NCBI RefSeq assembly: GCF_036365525.1
Contig: NC_090404.1
Location: 26,992,149 to 27,056,148, forward strand
Direction of reading: 5' to 3'
Source of the DNA: Heterodontus francisci
Taxonomy: Eukaryota
Length of the DNA: 64,000 nucleotides
Below, in pieces: positions 3,090 through 62,455 of this stretch (positions are counted from its first letter, which is position 1; the number at the start of each line of letters is the position of its first letter). The notes beneath the pieces are model-generated. The model was not told the DNA's origin. It worked only from the letters and a program-made list of their open reading frames with translations, and did not search any database. The position numbers and the translations under genes were made by a program.

Positions 3090-3159
3090 CTGGAACTCCG
3101 ATAACTGCAAGAATGGGATAGTAAATGGCAAATACCGAACCTTTTGCTGCCGCGTGCAC
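3090..3159 (-). pseudogene. Orphan exon 1 of a GPR139-like GPCR; start codon is GTG (VHAAAKGSVFAIYYPILAVIGVP)
   Basis: Colinear with the other three exon 1 copies and keeps the CCAG|GTAAAG donor. ATG is changed to GTG, with an in-frame TGA upstream at 3196-3198. No exon 2 in the window. Confidence 0.7.
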
Positions 3160-3210
3160 TTCTATCTGAAGCTCTAAGAACGTTCTGAACTGCACTCAAA
3201 GATTGTCGCA

Positions 3211-3285
3211 TTTATACCTGATGTCAGGCTCCACGGAGATAATTAGATGGTTTTATATTTTTGCATTATATACACTAATTGAAAC
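3211..3285 (-). promoter_or_regulatory. GPCR proximal promoter (TATAAA, CTAATTA next to TCCGTGGAG, second TAATT)
   Basis: Positionally conserved with the other three copies. Confidence 0.5.
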
Positions 3286-3669
3286 AAACAGATACGTGCA
3301 GCACCTGCCAGACTGGTGTTTTTGTTTTGATGGATTGGAATATTTTTCAAGGGATCTGACACGGCTCTAAAATGAAATACCCAGAGATTACAACATGATC
3401 AGAGTTACAGTTATGGTAATGAAAAGTTTAATAGGCGGTTGGAATGGTGAAAGTTAAACTTGTAAACAAGAAATTCCCAGCTTTAAACCCTTTAACACTG
3501 AGTTAAGTGCCCTCAGCTCAAGGTATAACTGACCAGAGATATTCTGTTCCTGAAGGAAACTACAGCCAAGTTCTCGCTCCTGATCACTATTCAGCTCCAG
3601 TCGGTGTGATCCTGGGTCATATCCACCTGACTTCAAATCCCTCTGAGACGGGGCATCCACTTTGATGCA

Positions 3670-4570
3670 GCTGACTGTATTCAGTGTGGACTGATTTCGG
3701 TCAGCATGGTACTTTCAGTGTGCATTGGTGCAGTTGTGCGCGCTTAATGTTTTGTGTGGAAACATCCAGTTCAGCACGGTTTCGTTCAGTTTTAATGGTC
3801 AAGTTCAGTATGGTTATATTCAGTGGAGATATGCCCAGTTGAGCACATATACATTTAGTGTGGACTAGTCGAGGTCGGCGCAGTTATATCCAGTGTGGAG
3901 AGTCAAGTTAAGCACGGTCACAATCTGTGAACAGGTTTAGTTCAGCACGGTTATGTTCTGAGAGCACAGGTTTAGTTCAGTACCGCAACACTCCGGCTTT
4001 CTGAGTTCAGCCAAGTTATATTCTATGTGCACAGGTCCAGTTGTGCCTGCTAATTCTCATTGTTGAAAAGACCAATGTAACACGGTTGCATTCAGTGTTG
4101 ACTAGTCAAGTTCAGTACAGTGTGGTCCCATTCGGTAGAGACAGGTACAATTAGCATGGTGATACTTAATGTGGGCTGGTCCATGTCTGCACGGTAATAT
4201 TCAGCACACTCACATTCAGAGTGGACAAATCCAGTTCTGTGTTGTTACTTTCAGTGCGGACATCTTCTGTTCTGCCTGGTTCAACAGAATGTGGGTAGGC
4301 CCAATTCAGCACGGTTATTCCCAATATGATCGTGCCCAGGCTCAGCGTGCTTATATCGAGTGTGTTGATGGCTAGTTGATTACAATTACTGCAAGCATGC
4401 TCAAGGCTGGTCCTGTGCAGTTACTGTCAATGTGGAGAGGTCCAGGTCATCAGGGTTACATTTTTGAAGAAAAGTCCAGTTTTGCACAGCTACATTCACT
4501 GTAGACATGCCCAGTTCAACATGTTTGCATTTAGTGACCAGAGATCCAGTTAAGTGCCTTTGCATTCATT
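3670..4570. repeat. Degenerate ~32-bp tandem repeat upstream of GPCR exon 1 (tccagttcagcacggttatattcagtgtgga-like)
   Basis: Recurrent gttcagcacgg/ttcagtgtg cores. Homologous arrays at about 45940-46670 and 62858-63590. Confidence 0.7.
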
Positions 4571-4779
4571 CTTTGGGGAGTCAGGAGGTGAGTGACTCGC
4601 AGCAGAAATCCCAGCCTCTGAACTGCTCTTGTATCCATAGCCTTTATATGGCTGGTGCAGCTAAGTTTCAGCCGTTAAATGTCTACATTTGTTACAAGAT
4701 CCTTTTATTTCTTGATGGGCGGCTCTGGCAAGGCAGGCGTTTGGTGTCCATCATAATTGCCTTTGATTGATACCATATC

Positions 4780-5470
4780 CAACGGTATCGGTGTTTCTAG
4801 GAGGCCTATAAATTGCTCTCTCCTGTCTTAGTTTCTCCTTGTTATTTCATATCTCATCCGATACTGATTTCATTCCCTGTTCTTTCGAGCCATGATCCTT
4901 CCTGACTTTATGCGATCCTTTATTATCAGAGCGACCCTAACTCGTTTTTCATTTTGTATGTCTTTGTAAAGTATCATGTACTCTGGAATATTTAGTTCCC
5001 AACCTTGGTCACCATGCAATTACGTCTCAATAACGTTATTTGATCAAACCATTTATCTCTATTTGTGCCATTAACTTGTCTATCTCGCTACAAATCCTCC
5101 TGGCATTCAGATAAAGCAGTTTTAATTTTAACTTCCTGCTATTTCCCCCTGAATTTACATTATTTTCTGATACACTATTACCGTTACATTCTCGCTCCAT
5201 TTCTGTCACATTCTGCTTAACTTTACCAAACTTGTTGCACTGCTCTGTGCCCTTCACTTTTCTCTTTACATTTATAAATTCCCCATCACTTTGAGCCTCC
5301 TCAACTTTTTTTTTATCATAAATCCCCATCTACAGCGTTGGTTATTTGATTTGCCTGGACATTGGTCCCAGCCCAGTTTAACTGGACCTCGTCGCAATGG
5401 AATCGCTCCCGCTTTCCCTAGTATTGAAGCCAGTGACCCATGAAACGAAATGCCTTATTCCAAACCACTG
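4780..5470 (-). mobile_element. Old CR1 LINE fragment (ORF1 end and endonuclease start)
   Basis: ORF 5036..5329 contains LLYLNARRI...IDKL, the CR1 endonuclease N-terminus. Confidence 0.6.
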
Positions 5471-10390: not shown

Positions 10391-10547
10391 GAAGGGTCTG
10401 GGCTTTATAAATTGAGGCATAAAGTACAAAACCAAGGAAGTTAGGCTAAACGTGCATCAATCACACGTTCCAACTTCCAAAGGTTGAACCTGACCAACTG
10501 CCTTTGCTTTATTTGAAATTTATCCACAATATCAACAGTCCTGGATA

Positions 10548-19363: not shown

Positions 19364-20240
19364 GTGGCGAATGCGATCCTGTCCCGTGGAAGGTGCTGTC
19401 TCTCCAGATGTATCACTCCGTCCATGGCTTTGATGGATCTCCTGTTCATTATCACTGCCGTGATGTTGGACCGGATTCCTAGTAATCACATTCCAGGTAG
19501 CATCCTGGCCTTTACTTCCATGTGCAGTCTCAGGATTAGGTTCATTTATGCATCCAGAGACTCTACCATCTTGTTAACGGCCAATTTCACCTTTGATCGA
19601 TTTGAAGTAATTTGTTGTCGGAGCCAGAAACAAAATATTGCACTGAAAAAATGGTGGCTGTGATTATTGGAACGACCTGAACGTCCGTTGGGTTATTTAA
19701 TCAATATACCATGGTATTTTATGCACGAAGCGATCTACATAACTGAAAATGTCTGGTAATATTGCAGACTGAAAGATTTGCATTTTACTCTACGAATAGC
19801 GTCAGGTTTTCAATGGACTGACACGATTTCAACCCCTTTCTTTATGATTCTTTTGCTCAATGCTCTGACCTTCAGACTTAATCTAGCTTCCCATAAAACA
19901 CACAACAAACTCCAGCCACAGTAAAGAATGGAATCCAAGTGACGCATTGATGGAAAGCCAGAGGAAATCCATCCATTTACTCTTTGCCATGTCAAGCAGT
20001 GTCATCTTCATGTAGATGATATACGCTTGCAGCAACATTGCTTTGATTCTAATCGTTCTTCTCTTGGGAAGTGGAGTACAAGATTTCCACAGCTTCAGCA
20101 CTTTAAATCAAGCATTTATTGTGGACTTAAATCATGACACGGCAGAAAGCGAAAACGTCACATATGAGCTTGTACGAGTAATTATTCACATGCAGCCCAA
20201 CAACTACTGTTGTGATGAACACGTTTATACACCCAATTCT
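19364..20240 (+). pseudogene. Decayed GPR139-like GPCR exon 2, opposite orientation and divergent subfamily
   Basis: ILSRGRCCLSRCIT...FTFDRFEVICC, then frameshifted remnants of ILLLNALT, RKSI.LLFAMS and MNTFI. Confidence 0.88.
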
Positions 20241-24797: not shown

Positions 24798-25705
24798 TCA
24801 TTTAAACAATTTAACAATTACACATAGTGGATATTTCACTCCATTCTTTAACTCCTCTCTGAATTTTCTCTGGGTCCCTGCATAAATAAATGGATTGACA
24901 CAGGAACTCAAAATCTGAAGCATATATCCGCTTTGGTCCAGAATAAAATTTGATTCACTGAAATTGGAACCAGAAAAATACTTAACTTTTGCGATTCGGA
25001 CATAAAGGAAATTTATAAGAATGAGCAAATATAACAGCATGAAACTGCCCGAGATGCAGAAGAGTAAAACAATGGAGTTTCTCCGCTTCTCCATCTCTGG
25101 GTCACTCTGAGTCTCTCCATTGCTGTGGGCCCGGAGTCTCCTGCGGACTTTACTGGCAACTAGAATATGCCTGACCGTCAGAGCATTGAGCAGTAAAATC
25201 AGAATGAATGGGAGACAAGAGGTTGAAATGGAGCGAATCCAGTCAAATGCAGCCCATGCAGGTGACGTATAAAATATTAATTTTATGGTGCAGAACCAGG
25301 GTATATTGTTACTTATGTACAAAGGTGCATATGTAAAATACCAGAAGGCATTTTTTAAACAGCTCAGTGCAGACACGATTCTGATAACCCACGCTGCCGT
25401 TTTCTCAGTGCAGTATTTTATTTTCAGCTTCTGGCAACAAATAGCTATAAATCGATCAAAGGTAAAAGCGACCGTTAACCAGGCAGAACTGTCCATGATC
25501 GCAAAGCTTAGGGCATTACGGAGACTGCATATGGGTGTGATGAACAGGAAACTGGCTGGGAAATAAATACCAACAATCCGATTTAATATCACAGTAGTCA
25601 AGTTGACCAATAGATCCGTCACAGCCATGGACATCAGGTAGTAATTGATACATCTCGAGAGACCACATCTTCCTCGGGACAGGATCACAATCATTGCTAA
25701 GTTAG
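24798..25705 (-). CDS. GPR139/GPR142-like orphan class A GPCR, copy 1, exon 2 (spliced CDS join 27773..27704 + 25705..24798; 325 aa)
   Basis: Pyrimidine tract plus TACAG acceptor at 25706-25707. Open frame with seven-TM hydrophobic pattern, MAVTD, FTFDRF, ECL2 Cys, LPF..ILLLN and NPFIY. Confidence 0.92.
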
Positions 25706-27703: not shown

Positions 27704-27773
27704 CTGGAACTCCGACAATGGCAAGGAAGGGATAGTAAATGGCAAACACCAGACCTTTTGCTGATCCGTGCAT
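27704..27773 (-). CDS. GPR139-like GPCR copy 1, exon 1 (MHGSAKGLVFAIYYPFLAIVGVP, phase-1 intron)
   Basis: ATG at 27773 and donor CCAG|GTAAAG. The 70 nt join in frame to exon 2, giving the TM1 motif GVPAN. Confidence 0.9.
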
Positions 27774-27824
27774 TTCTATCCGAGGTCCTGAGCACACTGT
27801 GAACTGCATTCCAAGATTGTAATA

Positions 27825-27900
27825 TTTATGCTTGATGTAAGGCTCCCAGGAGAGAACTAGATGTTTTTTTTATCTTTTACATTAATTACACTAATTGAAA
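27825..27900 (-). promoter_or_regulatory. GPCR copy 1 proximal promoter (CATAAA, O/E-like TCCCAGGAGA, TAATTA/TAATTG homeodomain sites)
   Basis: Motifs read directly and conserved in position among paralogues. Confidence 0.5.
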
Positions 27901-28889
27901 CCAGCAAATCAGTGAAGCTGCTGCCGGGCTCGTGTTTTTGTTTTGATAGATTGGAATATTTTTCAAGGGTCCTGACACAGCTCTAAAGTGAAATAGCCAG
28001 ACTACAATATGATCCTAGCTAATATAATGTAAGTTTAATAGGTGGTTGCAATGGTGAAATTGAAAGTGGTATGCGAGGAATTCCTAGGTTTAAACCCTTT
28101 AATGTTGAATTAAGTGCCCACAGCGCAAGGCATAACTGATCAGAGTAATCCTGGTCTTGAAGGAAACTGCAGCCAAGTTCTGGCTCTTGATCACTATTCA
28201 GCTCCTGTCTGTGTGATCACTGTCGAGATCCCTCTGTGATGGTGCATCCACTTCAATGCAGTACTGTATTCATTATCGGCAGGGCTAAGTCAGCACGGTG
28301 TTTTCAGTGGGCATAGGTGCAATTGTGATCATTTATGTTATATTTTGCACTTGTTATATTTCATAAGCCTCTTTCTTTAAGCCTCGGCAGCTTTTTAATT
28401 AAAGGCCCATCTACAGCACTAGTTAGTGGATTCTCCTGGATATTGGTCCCAGCACGGTTCAAGTGAACTTCATCCCAACGGAACAGTTCCCCCTTTCTCC
28501 AGTCGTGGAGCCAGTGATACATTGACAGAAATGCCTGCCTCCCACATTGTGTTTTGAACCACGCATTCAGCTCACAGCATGGTCAGTCTTTCCAGCATCA
28601 TTGTGCTACTTGGTGCATTTAACGGGCAACAAAATAGTAGCAAGTAGATAGAGGAGCAGCTTCAAAAGAAAATTAAGAGCGAGGCTGTAGCTATAGAGTA
28701 GCGATAATGGGAAATTTTAATTACTGTGATAGTAAATGAGGCAGCGATTGTGAGGGGCAGAGAGTAAAGAAATTTCTGAAGTGTAGTGTGTTCAAATAAT
28801 TTTCTTTTTCAGTATGTTTCCTGTACAAAGGGAAGGAGGCAATGCTAGATTTAGTCCGGGAATGGCATGGCAAGAATATTAATCATAGT

Positions 28890-29300
28890 GACCAGAATTT
28901 TACACCACCCCCTCCCAATGAGCAGGCTGGTGGTGGTGGTGTGGTGGGGGGGGGGGGGGCGGATGTAGAATTGCATGGGAGGCAGAGGAAGCCATTCCCT
29001 ATGCCTTGCTGCCCACGGTGCTATTTAACACAGAGCAACGGTGGCAATAAATGGCCCGCTGACCCTCAGGCGGATCAAAACCATAATAGTGGTCAATTAA
29101 CTGGCACGTAAGGGCCTTCTATGGCCACCACTGGTACTTTGCAGTAAAATACCACTGGTAAAATATGGTGGCCTTCTTGCAGGCTCGTGGTGGGCGCTCC
29201 TGATCGGACACCCCGTGCACCACAAAGGGCCACCTCAAAGCCAAAACCGCCTCCACTGCAGAGCAGTACCCCCCAACCCCGATTGTCCCCAGCGACACAA
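28890..29300. mobile_element. Partial MITE-like GC-rich element (homologue of 52446-53126)
   Basis: Begins GACCAGAATTTT at the same unit position as 52446. Confidence 0.55.
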
Positions 29301-29404
29301 TATTGATTAAACGATAGAAAACAGGGAGGAAGGCAAAATACTGTGGCTGCTGGAATTCTGAAACTAAAAACAAGAAAATGCTGCAACTTCCCAGCAAGTC
29401 AGAC

Positions 29405-33640: not shown

Positions 33641-34517
33641 ATGTGGAGAGAGAAATCGAGTTATTGTTTCAGGTCGATAACTTAACTGGGAAATGGAAAT
33701 ACCGTAATAATAGGTTTCGAGCAAAAAAAAAGGAGAAAGTGGTGCAGAAACAACACAATGGAAGGTTTGTGAAAGGGTGAAAAACATGAGAGATTAACGG
33801 ACAAAAGCGATGATTGTGCAAGGCATAGAAAACAAAGAGTTGTTGTAAATACATGTTTATTGCACTGTAGGGAGATATGCAGAGTCGTTTCCCCAAGGGT
33901 CACTCATCTGATCCACTGCTGTTATTGATATATATTAATGACTTGTACTTGGGTATAGAGAGCATCATTTTAAACATTGTAGACGATAAAATCTCCAAAA
34001 TGCGGTCAATAGTGAGGAAGATACTACAAATCTTCACAGGCTGCTGGAATTGGTGGACACATGGCAATGAAATTCTACTCGGAGAGGTGTGAGGTGATAC
34101 ATTTAGCTAGGAGGAATAATGAGAGATAATACATGCTTAATATATTGAAAGATTGCGCAGCCACAACCCTCTGGAGAAGAGTACTCGAATGATTCACAAC
34201 CCTTTGATGAAGAAATTTATCCTCATCTCAGCCCTAAACGATCGGCCTCTTAACCTGAAACTGTGCCCCTTTTTCTAGACATGACAGCTAGAGGAAACAC
34301 GGTCTCAGCATCTACTCCATCAAGGCCCTTCACACTCTTGAATGGTTCAAAAGCACCTCTCAATCTGCTAAACTCCAGAGACTATTTGACACAATTTACT
34401 CAGCCTCTCATCATAGAAAAATAATCCCATCTCAGGAACAAATGTAGTGAACCTTCGCTGTGCTGCCTCCAATGCAAGCATAGCCTTCCTTAAATATGGA
34501 AACTAAAATTTTCCTTT

Positions 34518-36375: not shown

Positions 36376-36478
36376 AAAATTGCACTCAGTAATTCAGGTG
36401 TGACCTCCTAAAATTGCAGCAAGTCCTTTAAAAAAATATTCATTTACTTCAATCCCCTTGAAATGAAGACTAACATGT

Positions 36479-37306
36479 CTCCTCACTTTCCCAGGCCCCA
36501 AACACTCTTTTCAGGTGAAGCAGCGATTACTGTACTTCTTTCAATGTAGTATACTGTATTCGCTGCTCACAGTGTGGTCTCCTCTACATTGGGGAGACCA
36601 AACGCAGACTGGGTGACCGCTTTGTGGAACACCTCCACTCAGTCCGCAAGCAGGAGCACGAACTTCCAGTTGTTTGCCATTTCAACACTCCCCCCTGCTC
36701 TCATGCTCACATCTCTGTCCTGGGCTTGCTGCAGTGTTCCACTGAACTGCAATGTAAGCTCGAGGAACAACATCTCATTTACCGATTAGACACACTACAG
36801 CCTGCCGGACTGAACATTGAGTTCAATAATTTCAGAGCATGACGGGCCCCCCATTTTACTTTTATTTTTATTTAAAAAAATTTTTTTTTGTGTGTGCTTA
36901 TTTTATTTCATCTTAGTTTGTTCAGTTTTCTTACCCATTGTGTTTTTTCAATGTTGGTACTTGCTGCTGTTCAATTTTCTGTTCGTTAACACCCTATCTG
37001 TACTAATGTTTTGTCTTTTAACACACCATTAACATATTGTTTGCCTTTACTCCATGACCTTCTGGTCAGTTATTCTGTGACCTTGTCCTATGTACACCTT
37101 CTCCTTTGTTATCTCTTGCCCCACCCCCGCTTTACTTGCTTATAACCTTTGCCATTTCTAATATTTTCCAGTTCTGAAGAAGGGTCGATGACCTGAAATG
37201 TTAACTCTGCTTCTCTCTTCACAGATGCTCTTAGACCTGCTGAGAATTTCCAGCATTTCTTGTTTTTATTTCAGATTTCCAGCATCTGCGGTATTTTGAT
37301 TTTATT
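36479..37306 (+). mobile_element. 5'-truncated Penelope-like element (GIY-YIG end plus 3' tail with hammerhead motif at 37170-37206)
   Basis: VVYCIRCSQCGLLYIGETKRRLG..F.EH. TSD AC(T/C)AACATGT at 36469 and 37309. Empty site near 54845. Confidence 0.88.
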
Positions 37307-37978
37307 ATACCAACATGTTATTTGCTTGCTGAATTGCTTGCTGTACATTTATGATAACGTTCTGTATTCAAGCACTCCCATGTCTCTCTGAGTATTAACA
37401 TGCAGAAGTTTCACGCTGTCATGAAAACGTGCTTCATGTTGAATGATGAATTTTAATCCACCAGCTGGAAAATTGCAATGATTTTTCTGGGGAAAAAAAC
37501 AGGAACGAAGGTGTCTTGATGCTTGTCGCTAAAGACGGTTACCCCAATTTGCATCATTGCAAGTTCCACATTGCAATGCATTCAGATGGAGTCAGCATGT
37601 CTGCATAGACCCATCAAGGAAAATGACATGGCGGATCTGAGTGAAACTGCTATTCTGCTCCCATTAGCACGGCGTCAAGGCTATTACCTGAGGTATTTAA
37701 CTGATAGAAATGAACCACTCTTACCTAATCATGTGAACAATGGAACCCTAGCTGTGAGTCGGGGAACCCTGACATGGCCTAATTGAGAGAATACACTGGT
37801 AACCAGTATGTTTGAATTACTGGGTAACGGTAATGTGACAGGCCCACCCTTCGTGTGCTTTAACTGTTGTTTTCTTTGCGGTAAGGAGATAAGCAGCTCG
37901 AAACTGATAAGAGAACACCAGAGTGGGGAACCTCCTTCCTTTCTCCAGCTCTCTTCAATCCACCTTGCAAGCTTCGGA

Positions 37979-38210
37979 AACAAAAACAAGAAATGTTGGA
38001 TTCACTCAGCAGGTCTGGCAGCATCTGTGGAAAGAGAAGCAGAGTTAACGTTTCGGGTCAGTGACCCTTCTTCGGAGTTCCGAAGAAGGGTCACTGACCC
38101 GAAACGTTAACTCTGCTTCTCTTTCCACAGATGCTGCCAGACCTGCTGAGTGAATCCAGCATTTCTTGTTTTTGTTTCAGATTTCCAGCATCCGCAGTAT
38201 TTTGCTTTTA
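37979..38210. mobile_element. 232-bp Penelope-derived palindromic insertion (100-bp arms, 2-nt spacer)
   Basis: Arms 37977-38076 and 38079-38178 differ at one position. 14-bp TSD TTGCAAGCTTCGGA at 37965 and 38211. Empty site near 55491. Confidence 0.9.
38076..38112 (+). ncRNA. Minimal type I hammerhead ribozyme-like motif of the Penelope terminal repeat (CCGAAGA variant core)
   Basis: AGTT-CCGAAGA-A-GGGTC-ACT-GACCC-GAAACGTT-AACT: stem I AGUU/AACU, 5-bp stem II and palindromic ACGU stem III. Confidence 0.65.
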
Positions 38211-38267
38211 TTGCAAGCTTCGGACCCTGTTTGTTGACCATGACCACCCAGAATGCCCCTTCTGTAG

Positions 38268-38570
38268 AATTTTCAGTTCGTTAACACCCTATCTGTACTA
38301 ATGTCTTGTCTTTCAACACACTATTAACATATTGTTTGCCTTTGCTCCATGACCTTCTGGTCAGTTATTCTGTGACCTTGTCCTATCTACACCTTCTCCT
38401 TTGTTATCTCTTGCCCCACCCCTGCTTTACTTGCTTATAACCTTTGACATTTCTAATATTTTCCAGTTCTGAAGAAGGATCGCTGACCTGAAATGTTAAC
38501 TCTGCTTCTCTCTCCACAGATGCTCCCAGACCTGCTGAGTATTTCCAGCATTTCCAGTTTTATATTTCAA
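38268..38570 (+). mobile_element. Penelope-like 3' UTR fragment with hammerhead motif (38465-38501)
   Basis: Near-identical to 36975-37275. Confidence 0.8.
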
Positions 38571-38571
38571 T

Positions 38572-41500
38572 CAGTTTAAGTACAACAAAGCTAACCTCTT
38601 TCTTTGTTAGACTCAAGAAAACCTGTATGATTGGTTGTTTTTATGATCACTTCGTATATACTGCATATACTCACTGAATTGGCAGCTATATCAACTTCAA
38701 AAACAAATAAACATGTTGTAGAGATGCAGGGAGAGGGAAAAGAGGCGAGCTCTTTAACCAAGTGGATCTGTGGCAATAATCAAAAAAAAAACTTCAACAT
38801 GGGATTTCTTGTGGTTTTCAGTGTCAGAGTACTAAAATGTCCACATTTGAGGCCTAGAACAGAGTGAAATAACTTAGTACAGTTTAAAAGCTTGATCCAT
38901 TAAAGAGTTCAGAAGTATAGCGAGGTAGCTAGCGATAAATACCTGTCCAAATGCTAGGAAACCCGAAATCCTAAAACCTGTAGCCAACCATTATCAAATT
39001 GAAATTGAAGAACTGGCGACAGGCATAGAATCTGAAACGGACAGACTCGTATTAGCCAAGATATAGCTGGAACCTGGAGACTGCTGCCAGAATTCAAAGA
39101 CAAAGAAATGGAATGGGAGAGACAGGAATGGAAGGAAGAAAGACAATATTTCAGGAAAGGAGAAAGAAAGAGCTTTCTAGAAGGAGAGGAAAGAAAGAGA
39201 GTCAAAGCAGCTCGAAATGATTAGGGGAAGATCCAATGTAGCCAGTATCAATAGAGGGAACTATCCTAGCTCAAGACTGAGTGCTGAGGACTCAAAGTTC
39301 TCCCAATTGACACCAATGTTTAATGAGGGGGAATGTGGAATTATGTTTTTGATCTTACTTAAAAAACTTGCAAAACAGTTGAAGTGGCTAGTGGAGGGCT
39401 GGACCCCGCTTGTGTAAAGCGAAATAACAGGGAAAGTCGATGAGGTTTATTTTTTATCCTCCCATGGGAGTCCATAAAACAGTGAGGTAACCAAAATGTC
39501 TATCCTGAGTGAATATGAGCTGGCACCAGAGGCATGCCACCAAAAATTCCTAAACTTCCAAAAACGTCCTGAAGAACCTTAGCTCGAGTTCAAAAAGGTT
39601 AAGCAACTCAATTTCAACCGATAGATAAGAGCAATTAAGATTTGAGGTCACCTACAAAAACCTCAGAGAGGTGATCCTTCTGGAGGAGTTCAAAAACTGT
39701 TTGTCCTTTCCATAAATACCTCCGTGGAGGACCAAAAGCTTTTAAGTGCCAGACAGGCAGCAACCTTGGCTGGTGATTATCAGCTTGCCCACTAGCCCTT
39801 ACCCAAAGGGAAACCTTTCCCTTGTCACGTCCAAAAAACCTGAAAAAGATAGAAGGTGCGAGGATGATAGGAGGATGAACAGCAATGGGTGGTAAGGGAA
39901 AGCTGGAAACACAGGGAGCCTTCCTCAGGCAAAAAATAAAGGTGCTGAGAACAGGAGTTATGCCCGAAATCCTGTATGTTTCCATTGCAACAAGGCAGGT
40001 CACCTTAGAGCTGACTGATGGAAGTTCTGGGGAAAACCCATATGATTTGTCGGGGTAAACCAGAACAGTACAGGAAAAGGGGCCCTGACGGGAAGCGCAG
40101 CCGACCTGCCTATGGCTCCAACCGTGGCAGTAGGTGCCTGTAAATGTACCACTGTGAGTGCAGGCGAATTTATCAAAATCCCTGAGAGATGCCAGGATTT
40201 TGTGTCGAAAGGAAAGGAAGCCCCATACCCCTCGAGTGAGGCAAACAAGCCCATAGTCATACTTATTGATACAGGGACCTCGCAATTCCTTCTGCTGGGA
40301 AAAAAATACAATTTCCCCCAGACAGCACATTCAATGCCAAAGTATTAGTGACCAATTTTGGGGGAAGGTATATGCCCATACCTTTATATCGGGTGCACCT
40401 GCACTACGACCTTATTTCAGGAGCAGTAAATATGGGGGCTTGTCCCTAGTTTACCAGTGGATGGGGTCGACATGTTCTTTGTTAATGACCTGGCGTGGCG
40501 AAGCTGCTGGCATCCCCAGTCTTCTTAGACAGGCTGAAAGAGGTCAAGGAGACAGAGCAGTTACAGGAAAAGGCCCCTGGCATTTTCTCTGAATGTGTTG
40601 TGACCCGGTCTCTGGCTAAACAAGCTCCATCATAGGAGGCTGAATTGGCACTGCAGACGGATGGCCTTGCTGTCTATTTATCCGAAACGTTCTTCCGATG
40701 TTTAGAGGAGCCAAAGGAAGTTTTAAGCAGGATTTCATTTGTCGAGGTTCTGCAAGCTGATCTAATGTTAAGAGAGTTAGCACAGACTGTCCAAACTGAA
40801 GGTGAAGCAGAGAGAGTTCCAGAGTGCTACTTCCTAAAGAATGATGAAGAAGTGGAGACATCCTCACAGACCTGCACATGACGATGGGCAGTGGTCCATC
40901 AGATAGTGGTGCTGTTGAGGTACCATAGGGAAATATTGAGGATAGCCAACACAATTCCAATGGCCGGACATGTCGGTATCCAAAAAAAAAAAAAACGAGT
41001 CCAAATAAGACAGCATTTTAACTGGCCACACCTTCACAGGGATGTGGTAGAGTTCTGTAAAACTTGCCACACGTGCCAGGTTGTGGGGAAGCACCAACCT
41101 GCAATAAAATCTGCGCTTCTAATTCCCAAAGCAGCATATTGGTGAACTATTTAGAAGAGTGTTGGTGATTGTGTGGTGCCCCTGCCGAGTGCAAAAGGGC
41201 ACTACCAGTATCATCTCACCATATTGGGTGTGGCTACCCGATTTCTAGAGGCCATTCTCCTAAGAGCCATCTCTGCCAAGTTAGTGGTGGAGGGGCAAAC
41301 CCAATTCTTCACCCGCTATCGGCTGCCTGCAGAGATCCAGTTGGATCAGGGCACAAATTTTATGGCCAATATTTTTCAAAAGGTAAAGTTCTCAGTTTAG
41401 CACCCACAGTCACAAGAGTCTTTGGAATGGTACCACCAGACCCTAAAGACAGCGATCAGGGCATACTGCCATGAGTACCCCCATGACTGGGACAAAGGGC

Positions 41501-42110
41501 TGGTATTTCTTCTTTTCTAACAGGGACTCACCCAATGCGCCTATTGGTTTTAATCCCTTTGAATTAGTTTATGGACACGAGGTGAGAGATCCTCTTAAAC
41601 TAATCAAGGGAAGGTTTTTAGAGAACAGGGACACTCCCTTCATTTCAGACTTCATCTCCATATTCTGTGGGCAGTATACAAGAGATGGTGCAGTGGCTCA
41701 GGCACAGCTAAAAATATCCCAGACAGCTATGAAAAGGCAGGTTATTAAACATGCCAAAGCCAGAATATTTCAGTATGGACATCATGTGTTAGTGCTACGA
41801 TCAATATAGGGTGAACCATTGAAAGCCTGGTTCAGTGGCCCATACAGAGTAGTAAAGGGGATTAGTGAGTTTAATTATTGAATTGACACTGCAGACTGTA
41901 AGAAAAAAGCAAAGGCTGTTCCACATCAATATGTTGGAGGTCTATCACAACCAGCAAGAGGATAAACAAGCACAAGTCTGTCAGGCAGCCAGGGAAGAGG
42001 AGGACGGTGAGGACGAGTGAGATGGAGGTCTGTAGGGTTCCTAAATTGAGTCCCCTACCGTCCGGTTAGCTAAAATCAAAACGATGATGAGATGAGACAT
42101 CATACTCTCT
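38572..42110 (+). mobile_element. Decayed Gmr1-like Gypsy LTR retrotransposon (LTR end, gag, protease, integrase; no RT seen)
   Basis: Zinc knuckle CFHCNKAGHLRAD near 39975, protease ILIDTGTSQ near 40260, then integrase GHVGI...CKTCHTCQ, DQGTNF and PFELVYG. No RT lies between protease and integrase. Confidence 0.8.
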
Positions 42111-42114
42111 TATT

Positions 42115-42440
42115 TATAGAGATGCAGCACTGAAACATGCCCATCAGCCCACCGAGTCTGTGCCGACCAACACCCACCCATTTATGCTAATCCTACATGA
42201 ATCCCATATTCCTTACCACATCCCCACCATTTTCCTACCACCTACCTACACTAGGGGCAATTTATATTGGCGAATTTATATATCAACCTGCAAGGGTTTG
42301 GCTGTGGGAGGAAACCAGAGCACTCAGCAGAAACCCACACAGATCACAGGGAAAGCTTTCAAACTCCACACAGGCAGCACCCAGAAGCGAACCCACGTCA
42401 CTGAAGCTGTGATGCTAACCACTGCGCCACTGTGCTGCCC
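42115..42440 (-). mobile_element. HE1-type V-SINE
   Basis: tRNA-like head GGGCAGCACAGTGGCGCAGTGGTTAGCA, V-domain TGTGTGGAGTTTG...GGTTTCCTCCCACA and a CR1-type tail. Confidence 0.8.
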
Positions 42441-42552
42441 TTTAAACGCAGAATAGAAAGGAGACCTAACAAGGCTGCTCACAGAGTGTGACAGGCTCAA
42501 GAACAGCACGGAATGCAATATAACGTGAAAACGATGTTGGATTTTACTAATT

Positions 42553-43463
42553 TCATAATTTCAACAATTTATAAATAAGACTGAATAGATATTTCACTCC
42601 ATTCTCTAACTCATCTATGAATTTTCTCTGGGTCCCTGCATAAATAAACGGATTGACGCAGGAACTCAAAAGCTGAAGCATTAATGCGCTTTCCTCCAGA
42701 ATAAAGCTTGATTCATTGAAATTGGAACCGGAAAAATATTTAAGTTTTGCAATTCTAACATAAAGGAAATTTATCAGAAGTACCAAATATAACAGCATGA
42801 AACTGCCCGAGACGCAGAAGAGTAAAACGATGGAGTTTCTCCGCTTCTCCATCTCTGGGTCACTCTGAGTCGTTCCATTGCTGTGGGCCTGGAGTCTCCT
42901 GCGGGCTTTACTGGCCACTAGAATGTGCCTGACAGTCAGTGCATTGAGCAGTAAAATCAGAATGAATGGGAGACAAGAGGTTGAAATGGGGCGAATCCAG
43001 TCAAATGCAGCCCATGCAGGTGACGTATAAAATATTAATTTTACGCTGCAGAACCAGGGTATGTTGTCAATTATATACAAAGGTTCAAATATGAAATACC
43101 AGAAGATATTTTTGAAACAGCTCAATGAAGATATGATTCCTATAACTCGTGCTGCTGTTTTCTCGGTGCAGTATTTTATTTTAATCTTCTGACAACAAAT
43201 TGCCATAAATCGATCAAAGGTAAAAGCGACTGTTAACCAGACAGAACTGTCCATGATCACAAAGCTCAGGACAATACGGAGACTGCATACGGGTGTGATG
43301 GATAGGAAACTGACCGGGAAATAAATACCAGCAATCCGGTTTAATATCACAGTCGTGATCATGACCAGGAAATCCGTCACTGCCATGGACACCATGTAGT
43401 AAGTGATACATCTGGAGAGACCACATCTTCCTCGGGACAGGATCACAATCACTGCCAAGTTAG
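42553..43463 (-). CDS. GPR139/GPR142-like orphan GPCR, copy 2, exon 2 (spliced CDS join 45451..45382 + 43463..42553; 326 aa)
   Basis: TACAG acceptor at 43464-43465. Intact seven-TM frame with DRF and NPFIY. Confidence 0.92.
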
Positions 43464-45381
43464 CTGTAATAGAGACAGAGAGAGTCTGAGAGAAAGAGGG
43501 AGGATTGCGTTTGTGAGTGAGCGAGAACAGGGCAGTTTCTGTCTGACTCCCAACAAAATCATCCATTTAACAGTTTTTTTGGTGAATTTTATGGCTTTGA
43601 CACATGATCCTACGTGGAAAACTATCGCTTAATTTCTGGACACTTTTTCCTGTGTTTAAAATGACATCAGGATTTAAACTAAGACTGGTCAGTAACATTG
43701 AAATGTAAAATAATACAATCAAACATAATGGAGAACAAAAAGGCATCAGAAACCCATCGACACAAAAATGGGAGCATCAAACAGACAAGAAAAATAACAT
43801 CAGGAACATATTGTGGAAGATATTTAAGAGGGTAAATAATACAATAACTAACATTACAGTGCAATCTAACAGGAACACAGGAAAAACTTGCATTTACAAC
43901 AGATTATATACAGCTCAGGACCTAAAAGGCGCTCATCCAATGAATTACTATAAAATGATTCACAGTTGGTGATTTCTGTTTTCTTAAATCAATTTGTTCG
44001 TAAAGACTCTTAAACGGAAAGAACGGAATGGACAGTTAGTGTTTCCTCACTATGCAGAGGAGATATAGTTTAAAATGCAGTGATAACTCCAAGCGCTTCT
44101 CCCGTTGTTCAGCTGAGAACTTGGGTGTCAATCTGTACCAGCGGAAGTGGTGAATTATGAGGTCCTAATTGAACAAGGGTCCCTCTGACAGTGCAGCACT
44201 TCCTCAGCACTGCGCTACGCTGTGCTGTCAGCATAGATGTCCAGCCTTGTCCCATAGTGGCTATTGAAATTAAAACTTTTTTACTCAGGTGCGAGAGATG
44301 CCGCCAGTTATGCAGCTTCACAAATATGGAGAGTAGATTGAAGGTGGCAACAGTCTGTTACATTGTTGGAGGCTTGGAGCAGAAGGATCATTAGGGACTC
44401 AGCAGCCAGCTCTGTAGGACATTTAGCATTAGCGAATGTGGAACAGGAAAGCCGGGCTGAAGCAGTGTGAATTTGAGACTGAGAGTAGAAACACTGCGCT
44501 CTGTGAGTTCAGGATAAGTACAGATTCATTCACAAAACAGTCGCTTGTTGCATTGCTTGTATTTCTGTTAATAACTCAATTCCTAATAATGTTCCATCAA
44601 TGAATTCACTCATTAAATACAACCAGGAAATATTTAATTGTTGAATAATTTCAATCAGTGCAAATCAGACAGTCGTTGTCAATGTCAATGTAGAACTCGT
44701 TGTACACTGTGGTAACAGGCTGATAGTTCACTCACAGTAACAGTATCAATAAGACAATAGAGCTACATTTACACCATGATAACAGTGTAATAATTCACCC
44801 ACAGTAACAATGACAGCAACACAAAAGAAATACATTGATACCATGATAACGGTGTGCTAAATCACCCAGAGTAACAGTGGAAATAACGCAATAGAACTGC
44901 AATTACACTATGAAATGGCACACGTAAAGGGGAGAACTTATACAGTTAGAAGCAATATTACACCATTTAATGGGAAAATTATATCACTGAAGTGGAGAAA
45001 TTGTGCTGCCGAAGTGGATGTGATACTTGAAAGCGGGAGTAATTACACTCGTAATGTTAAGAGATCATACCAGTAATGCTGAGAAATGACACTTCTAAAG
45101 GGGAGAGGTTATAACATCAATGACAAAAAAAATCAGTAAATTTCGAAGAAATTATATCATTAAAATGGAGAAACAATTCTGTTAAAGTCGAAAAATTATC
45201 CGGTAAAATAGGAGAAATTGCAACAATTGGAGGGAAGAAATCTTACCACTAAAAGAGAGAAATTATTTCATTGAAGGGGAGAAAGACTATCCATAATCTG
45301 GAGAAACGCTCGTTGTAAGTAAGAGCAGTGACAAAACTAATCAATAATTTTCAAAACTAATAACTAACCGCAATACTTTAC

Positions 45382-45451
45382 CTGGAATCCCAATAGCTGC
45401 AAGGACAGGATAGTAAATGGCAAACACCAGACCTTTTATTGATCCGTGCAT
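45382..45451 (-). CDS. GPR139-like GPCR copy 2, exon 1 (MHGSIKGLVFAIYYPVLAAIGIP)
   Basis: ATG at 45451, donor CCAG|GTAAAG, phase 1 matching exon 2. Confidence 0.9.
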
Positions 45452-45501
45452 TTCTATTAGAAGTTCTGAGCAGGTCTAAACTGCACTCAAAGATTGTCAT
45501 A

Positions 45502-45537
45502 TTTATACCTGCTGTAAGGCTCCAGGGAGATAATTAG
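45502..45537 (-). promoter_or_regulatory. GPCR copy 2 promoter: CTAATTA-TC-TCCCTGGAG followed by TATAAA
   Basis: Minus strand reads CTAATTATCTCCCTGGAGCCTTACAGCAGGTATAAA. Confidence 0.55.
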
Positions 45538-47118
45538 ATGGTTCTATCTTTTACATTGATTACACTCAATGAAACAAGCAGATTAGTGCAGCAGTTGCCG
45601 GGCTCGTGTTCTTGTTTTGATGGAATGGAATATTTTTCAAGGGACCTGACATGGCTCTAAGGTGAAATACTCAAACTACAGTATAATCCTAGATACAAAT
45701 AGCATAATGAAAAGTTTAATAGGCAGCTGCAATGGTGAAAGTGAACCTTGCATATGAGGAATCCACGGGTTTAAATAATTTAATACTGAGTTAAGTGCCC
45801 TCAGCACAAGGCATAACTGATCAGAGATATACTGGTCCGAAAGGAAACTGTGGCCAAGTTCTCGCTCTTGATCACTATTCAGCTCCAGTCTGTGCGATCC
45901 CAGCTCCAAATCTCTCTGAGACAGTGCATCCATTTCAACACAACTGTCTGCATTCAGTATGGGCAGGTCTAGGTCAGCACAGTGCTTTCAGTGTGCACAG
46001 GTAAAAATGTGCACGTTTATGTCTTGTGTGTAACTGTCCAGTTCAGCACGCTTGAGTTCAGCATTGGTCAAGTTTAGTACAGTTATATTCAGTGGATAAA
46101 TGTTCAGTTGAGCACACAGCATATCGTATGGACTGCTTGGTGTCGGTGCACTTATATGCAGTGTCATCAGTTCAAGTTCAGCATGGTCTTGATCTGTGTG
46201 CACAGGTTTGGTTCAGTACGATTACATGCAGGGTACACAGGTTTCGTTCACAGGGGGAGGGGGGTGGTTGCGGTGGTGGTTGGTGAGGAAGAGAATAAAG
46301 GGAAGGTGTGTGATAGGGCAGAGGGATGGAAAGATTAAATAACAAAGCTCCAGTTCTGCATTGTTACTTTCAGTGAGGTATCTACAGTTCCATCCAGTTG
46401 CATTGAACGTGGACAGGTCACGGTTACTGCCAGCAAGATCTTGCTCAGCTCAAGGTGTTTACATCCAGTGTGCAGATGGCTAGATGATTATGGTTACTGC
46501 CAGTCTGTACTGCACGGTTACTTGCAGTGTGGAGGAGTCCAGTTCATCAGGGTTGCAATTATCCTAGAAACGTCCCAGTTTTGCATGGCTACATTGAGTG
46601 TGGACAGGTCCAGATCTGCATGCTTGCATTTAGTGTGCAGAGATCCAGTTAAGTGAGGTTGCATTCATTACGTACAGGCTTTGGGGAGTCAGGAGGTGAT
46701 CTACTCATGACAGAAATCCCAGCCTCCGACTTGCTGTTGCAGCCATTATATTTATATGGCTGGTACAGTTTTTATGGTCGTTGAATGTCAACCTTTGGGA
46801 CAGGATCCTTTTATTTCTTGATGTCCTTCTCCAGCAAGGCAGGCATTTGTTGTCCCCCTAATTGCCTTTGATTGGTGCCATATCCAACAGCATAGCTGTC
46901 ACTAGAAGGCCTACAAACCGTTCTTACATGTCTTAGCTTCTCTTTTTTTCAGTATCTCTACCCATACAGATTCACTTTTCCACGCTTCAAAGCCAATATA
47001 CTTCCTCAACTACTGTACTTTGATCATTTAGTGTCAGGGTCACTGAACCTCGTTTTTTATTTCGCATGTCCTTGCAAGATGTATCCTGGAATATTTATTC
47101 CCCAACTTTGGTCACCAT

Positions 47119-52440: not shown

Positions 52441-52445
52441 ATAGT

Positions 52446-57845: not shown

Positions 57846-59030
57846 ATGAGGATAGCCAACACAATTCCAATGGCCGGACATGTCGGTATCCAAAAAAAAA
57901 ACTAGTCCATATAAGACAGCATTTTAACTGGCCACACCTTCACAGGGATGTGGTAGAGTTCTGTAAAACTTGCCACACGTGCCAGGTTGTGGGGAAGCAC
58001 CAACCTGCAATAAAATCTGCGCTTCTAATTCCCATAGCAGCATATTGGTGAACTATTTAGAAGAGTGTTGGTGATTGTGTGAGGCCCCTGCCGAGTGCAA
58101 AAGGGCACTACCAGTATCATCTCACCATATTGGGTGTGGCTACCCGATTTCTAGAGGCCATTCTCCTAAGAACCATCTCTGCCAAGTTAGTGGTGGAGGG
58201 GCGAACCCAATTCTTCACCCGCTATTGGCTGCCTGCAGAGATCCGGTTGGATCAGGGCACAAATTTTATGGCCAATATTTTTCAAAAGGTCATGATCCAG
58301 CTAAAGTCCTCAGCTTACCACCCACAGTCACAAGAGTCTTTGGAATGGTACCACCAGACCCTAAAGACAGCGATCAGGGCATACTGCCATGAGTACCCCC
58401 ATGACTGGGACAAAGGGCTGGTATTTCTTCTTTTCTAACAGGGACTCACCCAATGCGCCTATTGGTTTTAATCCCTTTGAATTAGTTTATGGACACGAGG
58501 TGAGAGATCCTCTTAAACTAATCAAGGGAAGGTTTTTAGAGAACAGGGACACTCCCTTCATGTCAGACTTCATCTCCATATTCTGTGGGCAGTATACAAG
58601 AGATGGTGCAGTGGCTCAGGCACAGCTAAAAATATCCCAGACAGCTATGAAAAGGCAGGTTATTAAACATGCCAAATCCAGAACATTTCAGCATGGACAT
58701 CATGTGTTAGTGCTACTATCAATATAGGGTGAACCATTGAAAACCTGGTTCAGTGGTCCATACAGAGTAGTAAAGGGGATTAGTGAGTTTAATTATTGAA
58801 TTGACACTGCAGACTGTAAGAAAAAAGCAAAGGCTGCTCCACATCAATATGTTGGAGCTCTATCACAACCAGCAAGAGGATAAACAAGCACAAGTCTGTC
58901 AGGCAGCCAGGGAAGAGGAGGACGGTGAGGACGAGTGAGATGGAGGTCTGTAGGGTTCCTAAATTGAGTCCCCTACCGTCCGGTTAGCTAAAATTAAAAC
59001 GATAATGAGATGAGACATCATACTCTCTTA
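57846..59030 (+). mobile_element. Gypsy integrase remnant
   Basis: ORF 58079..58438 reads DQGTNF...SSAYHPQSQESLE..HQTLK. Confidence 0.85.
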
Positions 59031-59032
59031 TT

Positions 59033-59358
59033 TATAGAGATGCAGCACTGAAACATGCCCATCAGCCCACCGAGTCTGTGCCGACCAACACCCACCCATT
59101 TATGCTAATCCTACATGAATCCCATATTCCTTACCACATCTCCACCATTTTCCTACCACCTACCTACACTAGGGGCAATTTATATTGGCGAATTTATATA
59201 TCAACCTGCAAGGGTTTGGCTGTGGGAGGAAACCAGAGCACTCAGCAGAAACCCACACAGATCACAGGGAAAGCTTTCAAACTCCACACAGGCAGCACCC
59301 AGAAGCGAACCCACGTCGCTGAAGCTGTGATGCTAACCACTGCGCCACTGTGCTGCCC
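59033..59358 (-). mobile_element. HE1-type V-SINE (duplicate of 42115-42440)
   Basis: Near-identical to 42115-42440. Confidence 0.8.
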
Positions 59359-59470
59359 TTTAAACGCAGAATAGAAAGGAGACCTAACAAGGCTGCTCAC
59401 AGAGCGTGACAGGCTCAAGAACAGCACGGAATGCAATATGACGTGAAAACGATGTTGGATTTTACTAATT

Positions 59471-60381
59471 TCATAATTTCAACAATTTATAAATAAGACT
59501 CAATAGATATTTCACTCCATTCTCTAACTCATTTCTGAATTTTCTCTGGGTCCCTGCATAAATAAACGGATTGACGCAGGAACTCAAAAGCTGAAGCATT
59601 AATGCGCTTTCCTCCAGAATAAAGCTTGATTCATTGAAATTGGAACCGGAAAAATACTTAAGTTTTGCAATTCGAACATAAAGGAAATTTATCAGAAGTA
59701 CCAAATATAACAGCATGAAACTGCCCGAGACGCAGAAGAGTAAAACGATGGAGTTTCTCCGCTTCTCCATCTCTGGGTCACTCTGAGTCGCTCCATTGCT
59801 GTGGGCCTGGAGTCTCCTGCGGGCTTTACTGGCCACTAGAATGTGCCTGACAGTCAGTGCATTGAGCAGTAAAATCAGAATGAATGGGAGACAAGAGGTT
59901 GAAATGGGGCGAATCCAGTCAAATGCAGCCCATGCAGGTGACGTATAAAATATTAATTTTACGCTGCAGAACCAGGGTATGTTGTCAATTATATACAAAG
60001 GTTCAAATATGAAATACCAGAAGATATTTTTGAAACAGCTCAATGAAGATATGATTCCTATAACTCGTGCTGCTGTTTTCTCGGTGCAGTATTTTATTTT
60101 AATCTTCTGACAACAAATTGCCATAAATCGATCAAAGGTAAAAGCGACTGTTAACCAGACAGAACTGTCCATAATCGCAATGCTCAGGACAATACGGAGA
60201 CTGCATACGGGTGTGATGGATAGGAAACTGACCGGGAAATAAATACCAGCAATCCGGTTTAATATCACAGTCGTGATCATGACCAGGAAATCCGTCACTG
60301 CCATGGACACCATGTAGTAAGTGATACATCTGGAGAGACCACATCTTCCTCGGGACAGGATCACAATCACTGCCAAGTTAG
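59471..60381 (-). CDS. GPR139/GPR142-like orphan GPCR, copy 3, exon 2 (spliced CDS join 62369..62300 + 60381..59471; 326 aa)
   Basis: TACAG acceptor at 60382-60383. Intact seven-TM frame with 6 amino-acid differences from copy 2. Confidence 0.92.
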
Positions 60382-62299
60382 CTGTAATAGAGACAGAGAG
60401 AGTCTGAGAGAAAGAGGGAGGATTGCGTTTGTGAGTGAGCGAGAACAGGGCAGTTTCTGTCTGACTCCCAACAAAATCATCCATTTAACAGTTTTTTTGG
60501 TGAATTTTATGGCTTTGACACATGATCCTACGTGGAAAACTATCGCTTAATTTCTGGACACTTTTTCCTGTGTTTAAAATGACATCAGGATTTAAACTAA
60601 GACTGGTCAGTAACATTGAAATGTAAAATAATACAATCAAACATAATGGAGAACAAAAAGGCATCAGAAACCCATCGACACAAAAATGGGAGCATCAAAC
60701 AGACAAGAAAAATAACATCAGGAACATATTGTGGAAGATATTTAAGAGGGTAAATAATACAATAACTAACATTACAGTGCAATCTAACAGGAACACAGGA
60801 AAAACTTGCATTTACAACAGATTATATACAGCTCAGGACCTAAAAGGCGCTCATCCAATGAATTACTATAAAATGATTCACAGTTGGTGATTTCTTTTTT
60901 CTTAAATCAATTTGTTCGTAAAGATTCTTAAACGGAAAGAACGGAATGGACAGTTAGTGTTTCCTCACTATGCAGAGGAGATATAGTTTAAAATGCAATG
61001 ATAACTCCAAGCACTTCTCCCGTTGTTCAGCTGAGAACTTGGGTGTCAATCTGTACCAGCGGAAGTGGTGGATTATGAGGTCCTAATTGAACAAGGGTCC
61101 CTCTGACAGTGCAGCACTTCCTCAGCACTGCGCTACGCTGTGCTGTCAGCATAGATGTCCAGCCTTGTCCCATAGTGGCTATTGAAATTAAAACTTTTTT
61201 ACTCAGGTGTGAGAGATGCCACCAGTTATGCAGCTTCACAAATATGGAGAGTAGATTGAAGGTGGCAACAGTCTGTTACATTGTTGGAGGCTTGGAGCAG
61301 AAGGATCATTAGGGACTCAGCAGCCAGCTCTGTAGGACATTTAGCATTAGCGAATGTGGAACAGGAAAGCCGGGCTGAAGCAGTGTGAATTTGAGACTGA
61401 GAGTAGAAACACTGCGCTCTGTGAGTTCAGGATAAGTACAGATTCATTCACAAAACAGTCGCTTGTTGCATTGCTTGTATTTCTGTTAATAACTCAATTC
61501 CTAATAATGTTCCATCAATGAATTCACTCATTAAATACAACCAGGAAATATTTAATTGTTGAATAATTTCAATCAGTGCAAATCAGACAGTCGTTGTCAA
61601 TGTCAATGTAGAACTCGTTGTACACTGTGGTAACAGGCTGATAGTTCACTCACAGTAACAGTATCAATAAGACAATAGAGCTACATTTACACCATGATAA
61701 CAGTGTAATAATTCACCCACAGTAACAATGACAGCAACACAAAAGAAATACATTGATACCATGATAACGGTGTGCTAAATCACCCAGAGTAACAGTGGAA
61801 ATAACGCAATAGAACTGCAATTACACTATGAAATGGCACACGTAAAGGGGAGAACTTATACAGTTAGAAGCAATATTACACCATTTAATGGGAAAATTAT
61901 ATCACTGAAGTGGAGAAATTGTGCTGCCGAAGTGGATGTGATACTTGAAAGCGGGAGTAATTACACTCGTAATGTTAAGAGATCATACCAGTAATGCTGA
62001 GAAATGACACTTCTAAAGGGGAGAGGTTATAACATCAATGACAAAAAAAATCAGTAAATTTCGAAGAAATTATATCATTAAAATGGAGAAACAATTCTGT
62101 TAAAGTAGAAAAATTATCTGGTAAAATAGGAGAAATTGCAACAATTGGAGGGAAGAAATCTTACCACTAAAAGAGAGAAATTATTTCATTGAAGGGGAGA
62201 AAGACTATCCATAATCTGGAGAAACGCTCGTTGTAAGTAAGAGCAGTGACAAAACTAATCAATAATTTTCAAAACTAATAACTAACCGCAATACTTTAC

Positions 62300-62369
62300 C
62301 TGGAATCCCAATAGCTGCAAGGACAGGATAGTAAATGGCAAACACCAGACCTTTTATTGATCCGTGCAT
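62300..62369 (-). CDS. GPR139-like GPCR copy 3, exon 1 (MHGSIKGLVFAIYYPVLAAIGIP)
   Basis: ATG at 62369 and donor CCAG|GTAAAG; identical to copy 2 exon 1. Confidence 0.9.
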
Positions 62370-62419
62370 TTCTATTAGAAGTTCTGAGCAGGTCTAAACT
62401 GCACTCAAAGATTGTCATA

Positions 62420-62455
62420 TTTATACCTGCTGTAAGGCTCCAGGGAGATAATTAG
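62420..62455 (-). promoter_or_regulatory. GPCR copy 3 promoter: CTAATTA-TC-TCCCTGGAG followed by TATAAA
   Basis: Identical to the copy 2 promoter. Confidence 0.55.

Follow-up and report, generated by a model that had tools for sequence, protein, structure and literature searches.

Why does one region of a shark chromosome hold several related copies of a receptor gene that resembles the orphan receptor GPR139, and what might these receptors do? The stretch analysed here (the window) consists of 64,000 nucleotides of the horn shark, Heterodontus francisci (NC_090404.1, positions 26,992,149 to 27,056,148 of assembly GCF_036365525.1). A first-pass annotation, made from its letters alone, had described a birth-and-death cluster of orphan G protein-coupled receptors (GPCRs) like GPR139 and GPR142 and had proposed an unrecognised chemosensory family. 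We found compact two-exon genes with a seven-helix fold, which are under purifying selection overall and combine a conserved cytoplasmic face with a strongly diversified ligand pocket. These genes probably form a functional repertoire of receptors for many ligands; whether that repertoire is used in chemosensory cells is evenly balanced.

Five GPCR loci were confirmed in the window, namely three intact genes (A, B, and C), one exon 1 (locus D), and one decayed inverted copy (locus E). Six-frame translation and tblastn gave the long frames of the three intact genes and the decayed copy. Alignment of the upstream regions revealed a shared 70-nt exon 1 with a GT donor in four copies, which gave two-exon models for the three intact genes and proteins of 325 to 326 aa, as the first-pass annotation had reported. 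The exons of the intact genes are as follows.

62300..62369, minus strand: gene A exon 1, 70 nt, from the ATG to most of transmembrane helix 1 (TM1), in agreement with the N-termini of RefSeq paralogues
59471..60381, minus strand: gene A exon 2, from the end of TM1 to the stop codon, giving a spliced protein of 326 aa
45382..45451, minus strand: gene B exon 1, 70 nt
42553..43463, minus strand: gene B exon 2, giving 326 aa, with 321/326 residues the same as in A
27704..27773, minus strand: gene C exon 1, 70 nt
24798..25705, minus strand: gene C exon 2, giving 325 aa, with 268/325 residues the same as in A

In all three genes a GT-AG phase-1 intron (1918 nt in A) lies directly before N1.50 (helix-position numbering), and the RefSeq paralogue models, which were built independently, have the same N-terminus as our splice models. 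The homology of deeper relatives with wrong first exons begins one residue before N1.50, which suggests a single intron position across the family. Position 1.39 is Y14, so that the extracellular N-terminus has approximately 5–8 residues, close to the 8 first estimated. Two of the five protein differences between A and B are the residues at 3.33 and 3.34. A single-exon reading of A and B from an upstream in-frame ATG (337 aa) was rejected, as TM1 would be absent and C has no such frame.

To place the window within its family, a protein search (90% clusters, E 1e-5) was examined for the best 120 of 2202 clusters, the total covering all species including non-shark relatives. Horn-shark proteins made up 87 of these 120 (85 named and the window's own two), with 64 placed on the window's chromosome and 23 across four other contigs, and the remaining 33 came from ten further shark species, including Heptranchias and Pristiophorus. 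All 118 named matches (the near matches below) belong to sharks, 11 shark species carry intact members of the subfamily, and no ray or chimaera was among these 120. The family in sharks is large, and the window holds a small part of it. Clustering at 50% left 111 representatives with E below 1e-30, of which many are fragmentary or wrongly modelled. Tandem duplicates of differing age, dead copies, and a large lineage-specific set of paralogues bear out the proposed birth-and-death cluster; such an arrangement, with many tandem members, pseudogenes, and turnover among lineages, is the one looked for in a chemoreceptor repertoire. At least 87 distinct proteins from one subfamily in one shark amount to a large unexplained receptor system, whatever the tissue.

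The proteins belong to the rhodopsin class. Pfam 7tm_1 matched them at 65.5 and 68.8 bits, where the cut-off is 30.5 (gene A also had an Srx match under its cut-off), and the structure model of exon 2 was a confident helical bundle, with a predicted local distance difference test score (pLDDT) of 89.5. N1.50, D2.50, D/E-R3.50, P5.50, and NPxxY are all present in A, B, and C, and R3.50 occurs in 118/118 near matches. No Pfam family of OR, TAAR, V1R, V2R, or T2R was matched, and none of these receptors was among the 60 best of 410 matches when a 38-sequence family profile was compared with the PDB. The listed matches of a fold search were all class A GPCRs, with GPR139 at rank 3–4; their E values (5e-8 to 6e-7) were too flat to separate relatives, and the search was set aside as a ranking of relatedness. 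In the PDB, GPR139 came first both with a single sequence as query (E 7.5e-5) and with the family profile (84.7 bits, next receptor 66.6), and GPR142 was absent among the same 60 best profile matches.

Three lineages lie nearer, and in the listed matches each has about one gene per genome. The first spans teleosts, sturgeon, coelacanth, catshark, amphibians, and turtles; the second comes from ray-finned fishes, the third from amphibians. A tree was built from 49 hand-picked sequences (28 of the family, 4+7+5 single-copy, and 5 outgroup sequences assumed to be invertebrate), GPR139 and GPR142 not being included. It joined the shark family and the amphibian lineage at 100/99, while the shark family alone, without the amphibian lineage, had weak support (79/63), and an alternative that put the shark family beside the first lineage was rejected by the approximately unbiased test (p 0.008). 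The tree thus points to a single-copy amphibian orphan as the sister of the shark family, which offers a starting point toward the ancestral ligand. Of the likeness to GPR139 and GPR142 first proposed, what stands is that GPR139 is the nearest solved receptor; direct descent gives way to a separate single-copy orphan as sister. Rinne et al. (2019, PMC6504862, in part; sources so marked are cited from the sections available to us) described three sets beside GPR139/142, two of them named GPR210A and B. Our three lineages are probably these "GPR210" sets, an agreement in number and roughly in taxa only with a paper that, in those sections, covers no shark. Sharks also retain a single-copy GPR139-like orphan (P0345, P0356), whose zebra-shark model is fused with TMEM183A and could thereby supply a synteny marker. 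A divergent protein with a long repetitive second extracellular loop (P0270), perhaps from a jawless fish, branches with the ray-finned-fish orphan lineage (99/91).

The variation among the copies is concentrated where a ligand would bind. At 17 ligand-contact positions of GPR139 (PMC5430874 and PMC8807744, both in part), the entropy in the 85 named horn-shark paralogues was 1.34, compared to 0.70 at other helix positions (p 3e-4) and 0.92 at other outer-half positions (p 0.026), and these 85 proteins carried 82 distinct pockets. The same sites gave 2.64 against a background of 1.60 in 45 of 150 representatives at 50% clustering, where the "shark family" label of the deep sequences is assumed. 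The amphibian sister reversed the pattern (0.07 vs 0.47, p 0.001; 3 pockets in 18), and the other two single-copy sets were also lower in the pocket (0.52 vs 0.85, p 0.051; 0.28 vs 0.52, p 0.1). A generic list of 40 pocket positions gave the same pattern. The inner helix halves were more conserved than the outer ones (0.58 vs 1.06 in the 118 near matches). The family thus has the hypervariable pocket and conserved inner face that are typical of chemoreceptor repertoires. Higher entropy on the extracellular side has also been reported for candidate chemoreceptor expansions in lophotrochozoans (PMC11886862, in part).

The ratio of nonsynonymous to synonymous divergence (dN/dS) between A and C was 0.44 (bootstrap 0.28–0.67), with 0/2000 resamples at or above 1, whereas a family-wide ratio near 1 had been named beforehand as the mark of passive amplification. 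The dS of 0.216 equalled the intron distance (0.211), and the coding alignment held one gap, which is the length difference at the C-terminus, whereas the intron held 19. A and C are not evolving neutrally and are under purifying selection overall. At 40 pocket codons dN/dS was 1.06 (12 vs 3 changes, too few for testing), and the A/B pair, with 6 vs 3 changes, was uninformative for selection.

We propose that one ancestral orphan gene of the GPR139 group would have given rise to the shark repertoire of rhodopsin-class GPCRs by repeated tandem duplication and losses. Each copy would bind a different water-soluble small molecule or short peptide within the helical bundle, because the N-terminus is too short to contribute to the site, and the copies would share G protein signalling, probably through Gq/Gi as for GPR139. 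In the weakest step, expression would be sparse in chemosensory cells, either olfactory microvillous neurons or cells of taste, skin, or gut, under a proximal promoter of Lhx2/Ebf type. In its most specific form the proposal is tentative and less likely than not: a shark olfactory family recruited independently from a GPR139-group orphan, larger than OR, TAAR, V1R, and V2R combined, and sparsely expressed in olfactory neurons under an Lhx2/Ebf code. Cartilaginous fishes are reported to have the smallest olfactory repertoire of vertebrates (mean 43.8 genes) yet many olfactory neurons (PMC10869828, in part), and V2R/OlfC receptors are sparsely expressed in the catshark nose, whose neurons are TRPC2/Go-positive (PMC10116579, in part). 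If the family were olfactory, the account of the evolution of vertebrate smell would change, and the "small shark repertoire" would reflect searches limited to known families.

The lead toward the nose comes from the sequences upstream of exon 1, with the following putative elements.

62419..62454, minus strand: putative proximal promoter of gene A, in which TAATTA adjoins an Ebf/OE-like site and a TATA-like box follows, 56 nt ahead of the ATG
45501..45536, minus strand: gene B, putative promoter element with the same sequence as in A
27824..27853, minus strand: gene C, putative promoter with a strict Ebf/OE-type site, a changed homeodomain half, and a TATA-like box

In all four loci with exon 1, a TATA-like box precedes the start codon by 56–57 nt and an Ebf/OE-like site lies at -79/-80, and TAATTA abuts the Ebf-like site in A, B, and D (chance expectation 0.03 per 64 kb). 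This arrangement is similar to that of the Lhx2/Ebf composite probe from mouse olfactory enhancers, in which spacing was reported to be critical (PMC5608512, supplementary files 2 and 7, in part), but the spacing is one base shorter in the shark. As an olfactory clue, this Lhx2/Ebf-like element is a weak lead. An out-of-frame ATG stands right behind the TATA-like box at 62417 (A), 45499 (B), and 3211 (D), all on the minus strand, probably upstream of the transcription start.

Several points weigh against a chemosensory, and above all an olfactory, role. The promoter motif amounts to a single ancestral observation, with a pattern that was relaxed after inspection; its homeodomain half is absent in C, and the Ebf-like site alone occurs at chance level in the window (13 seen vs 13.2 expected). 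Upstream conservation was discarded as promoter evidence, since the upstream 130 nt had diverged by 0.22 compared to 0.21 in the intron. Lhx2 and Ebf both act outside the nose too. Relatedness among sequences is ignored in the entropy tests, which also set paralogues against orthologues, and the A/C dN/dS of 0.33 on the inner side and 0.57 on the outer side did not differ significantly (Fisher p 0.095). A, B, and C have Y6.48 and V/L6.50 in place of the CWxP motif, and P6.50 is kept in 12/118 near matches; CWxP with P6.50 is usual but not obligatory in class A. V2R/OlfC has been called the chief olfactory family of sharks, and a list of the top 50 genes specific to a catshark "brain & olfactory epithelium" library included no GPCR, although V2Rs were missed too (PMC11979771, in part). 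Larger elasmobranch genomes also tend toward more tandem duplicates generally (10.1101/2025.06.08.657570, in part).

Among the other explanations, immune or barrier surveillance survives best and is still unlikely. The receptors would then act in granulocytes, mast-like cells, B cells, or skin nociceptors, in the role of MRGPR or formyl-peptide receptor clusters in bony vertebrates. The same clustering and pocket diversity would be expected, Ebf is active in B cells as well, and cationic peptides or amines would fit an acidic 3.37 (D in 102/118 near matches) with E/Q at 7.36. The MAS1/MRG family has, moreover, been reported as gained in bony vertebrates (PMC8455134). Against this, GPR139 is restricted to the brain and GPR142 is found in gut and pancreas (PMC7318219, in part), and no direct immune evidence was found.

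We consider it improbable that the receptors are aromatic amino-acid sensors working like GPR139 and GPR142, an idea that follows the ligand proposal of the first-pass annotation. Mutagenesis and modelling have tied F109, H187, W241, R244, and N271 of GPR139 to agonist and Trp/Phe action (PMC5430874 and PMC8807744, both in part), and we mapped the pocket by sequence, through helix anchors and profile alignment, with F3.33, H5.43, W6.48, R6.51, and N7.39 as the five key sites. These read IRYLL in A, FRYLL in B, and FRYIY in C, with 0–1 of five matching GPR139. The 85 named horn-shark paralogues showed 48 patterns with a mean match of 0.95/5 and a maximum of 2; R6.51 was present in 5/118 near matches, and N7.39 was not among the five commonest residues at its position. 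The amphibian sister reads FQWKN in 18/18 sequences, that is, F3.33, W6.48, K6.51, and N7.39 are invariant. Because the sister keeps this pattern while the shark paralogues match at most two sites, the ancestor probably had a GPR139-like pocket, from which the shark copies would have departed. That GPR139 is the best PDB match, that the ancestor probably bound such a ligand, and that the R at the H187 position in the window genes could be a substitute anchor would all favour amino-acid sensing; the idea is not supported because the shark copies lost the GPR139 pocket.

Mostly passive amplification in a duplication-prone, retroelement-rich region, in which few copies matter, deserves similarly little credence. 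The units carry kilobases of flank among relics of long interspersed nuclear elements (LINEs), long terminal repeat (LTR) elements, zinc-finger genes, and tRNAs, two of the five loci look dead, an A/C dN/dS of 0.44 is high for a GPCR, and elasmobranchs with larger genomes tend to show more tandem duplication, as cited above. Yet that dN/dS is clearly below 1, gaps are far fewer in the coding sequence than in the intron, variation is concentrated in the pocket rather than uniform, and intact members of the subfamily occur in 11 shark species (best 120 of 2202 clusters). A repertoire for diverse endogenous peptides in reproductive or internal organs (sperm, testis, rectal gland, neuroendocrine cells) is hard to sustain, as no matching large peptide family is known to us, though no search was aimed at one, and high copy turnover would fit external ligands better. 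In its favour, invertebrate relatives of GPR139 are neuropeptide receptors (PMC12208981, in part) and in catshark the expression of some V2Rs extends to testis and rectal gland (PMC11979771, in part).

The history of the array and its two decayed loci was reconstructed from the following tracts.

40937..47082: tract around B from a recent duplication or conversion, with 99.0% identity to 57847–64000
57847..64000: partner tract around A, which runs off the window end
28376..39385: spacer between C and B, collinear in pieces (72–80%) with the spacer between B and A at 49977–56652
3090..3159, minus strand: locus D exon 1, with GTG for ATG, an upstream in-frame stop, and an intact donor, a probable pseudogene
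1972..3980, minus strand: upstream region and 5ʹ intron part of locus D, 71–80% identical to the other units
19369..20130, plus strand: locus E, an inverted decayed exon 2 from the end of TM1 to extracellular loop 3 (ECL3), with several frameshifts and a stop

The C–B and B–A spacers appear to be an older tandem unit that was later broken up by different retroelements. The A/B block shares 99.0% identity over 6158 nt, compared to an A/C dS of 0.22 and an A/D intron distance of 0.30, in line with the mixture of old and very recent duplications noted at first. The array is most simply read as an old tandem unit in which an unequal crossover or conversion took place recently. For A and B, an assembly duplicate is less likely because their left flanks, which are collinear, are just 72–78% alike. 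For locus D, no exon 2 was found within the window, and exon 2 may lie beyond the window because the intron homology ends near 1972 and unrelated inserted DNA extends from there to the window edge. The first-pass annotation was thus right about an exon 1 without ATG, and the label of an exon-1-only locus is untenable. Locus E, which is 67% identical to exon 2 of C (488/733 aligned nt), is the decayed inverted copy seen at first; no exon 1 for it was found in the window.

The surrounding DNA is rich in repeats. A 67-nt minisatellite lies in the introns of all four loci with exon 1 at differing copy numbers (26945–27097, 44723–44913, 61641–61831, and approximately 2005–2570). Directly upstream of locus E, a tandem unit of approximately 1.65 kb occupies 14682–19363 on the plus strand, with tRNA-Glu(TTC) at 15809 and 17466 and decayed tRNA copies at 14778 (Lys per ARAGORN) and approximately 19150. 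Past the homologous part of the D intron, a probable LTR retroelement lies at 1–1100 on the minus strand; a motif near 528 presumably resembles a tRNA primer-binding site, and after it a 140-codon open frame with no Pfam match runs off the window edge. Relics of two decayed C2H2 zinc-finger genes, mutually inverted and 71% alike, lie at 13446–14162 (minus strand) and 24164–24709 (plus strand), the latter just 3ʹ of gene C. A near-complete LINE at approximately 29400–33640 on the plus strand, which we take to be CR1-like, has an esterase-type first frame, an endonuclease, and a reverse transcriptase, the element being broken into several frames, and a second, decayed copy lies at 10547–13373 on the minus strand. 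A 445-codon frame at 51130–52464 (minus strand) holds the reverse transcriptase end of another LINE type, and an integrase-like LTR-element fragment is located 3ʹ of both A and B within the duplicated tract (58061–58724 and 41169–41806, plus strand).

The genes themselves are already in RefSeq under a borrowed name. We found no description of the shark family in the literature, where the tandem-cluster table of 10.1101/2025.06.08.657570, subscription papers, and supplements may name it. The term GPR139 did not occur in PMC8455134 (text and 24 supplements, partly readable), PMC10620051 and preprint, or the available sections of PMC11979771, PMC10116579, PMC10869828, PMC11886862, and 10.1101/2025.06.08.657570. 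An expected naming of the family in the zebra-shark genome paper was not confirmed. A relative paucity of GPCRs has been described in cartilaginous fishes (PMC8455134).

Compared to known systems, the shark genes share with GPR139 (PDB 7VUG and 9M42) and GPR142 similar TM1 and TM3 stretches and retain F6.44 and Y7.53, and both the shark genes and GPR139 have two exons. The relationship to GPR139 is nevertheless distant (17–19% identity in structural alignments): GPR139 is one highly conserved gene, 70% from human to zebrafish (PMC7318219, in part), whereas the shark family has many copies, with C3.25 and a cysteine in ECL2, where the GPR139 chain has no cysteine at 3.25 in the profile alignment, and with longer ECL2 and third intracellular loops. 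The shark genes were therefore rejected as GPR139 orthologues on both conservation and pocket. The single-copy GPR139-like orphans have an equally short N-terminus and differ in their number of about one per genome, their conserved pocket, and a basic residue at 6.51. OR, TAAR, V1R/ORA, V2R/OlfC, T2R, and MRGPR/FPR repertoires resemble the shark family in tandem clusters, pseudogenes, a compact coding region, and a variable pocket, but have a separate origin, the shark genes being 7tm_1. The invertebrate GPR139/SPR/FMRFamide-receptor expansions (nematode srw; molluscan srw and GPR139-named genes) come close in features only, not from the tree, and would be independent; Atlas neighbours of the shark proteins, identified there to phylum, carry Srw and include nematode srw-type chemoreceptor clusters, and a gene named probable GPR139 is highly expressed in the snail osphradium (PMC10638732).

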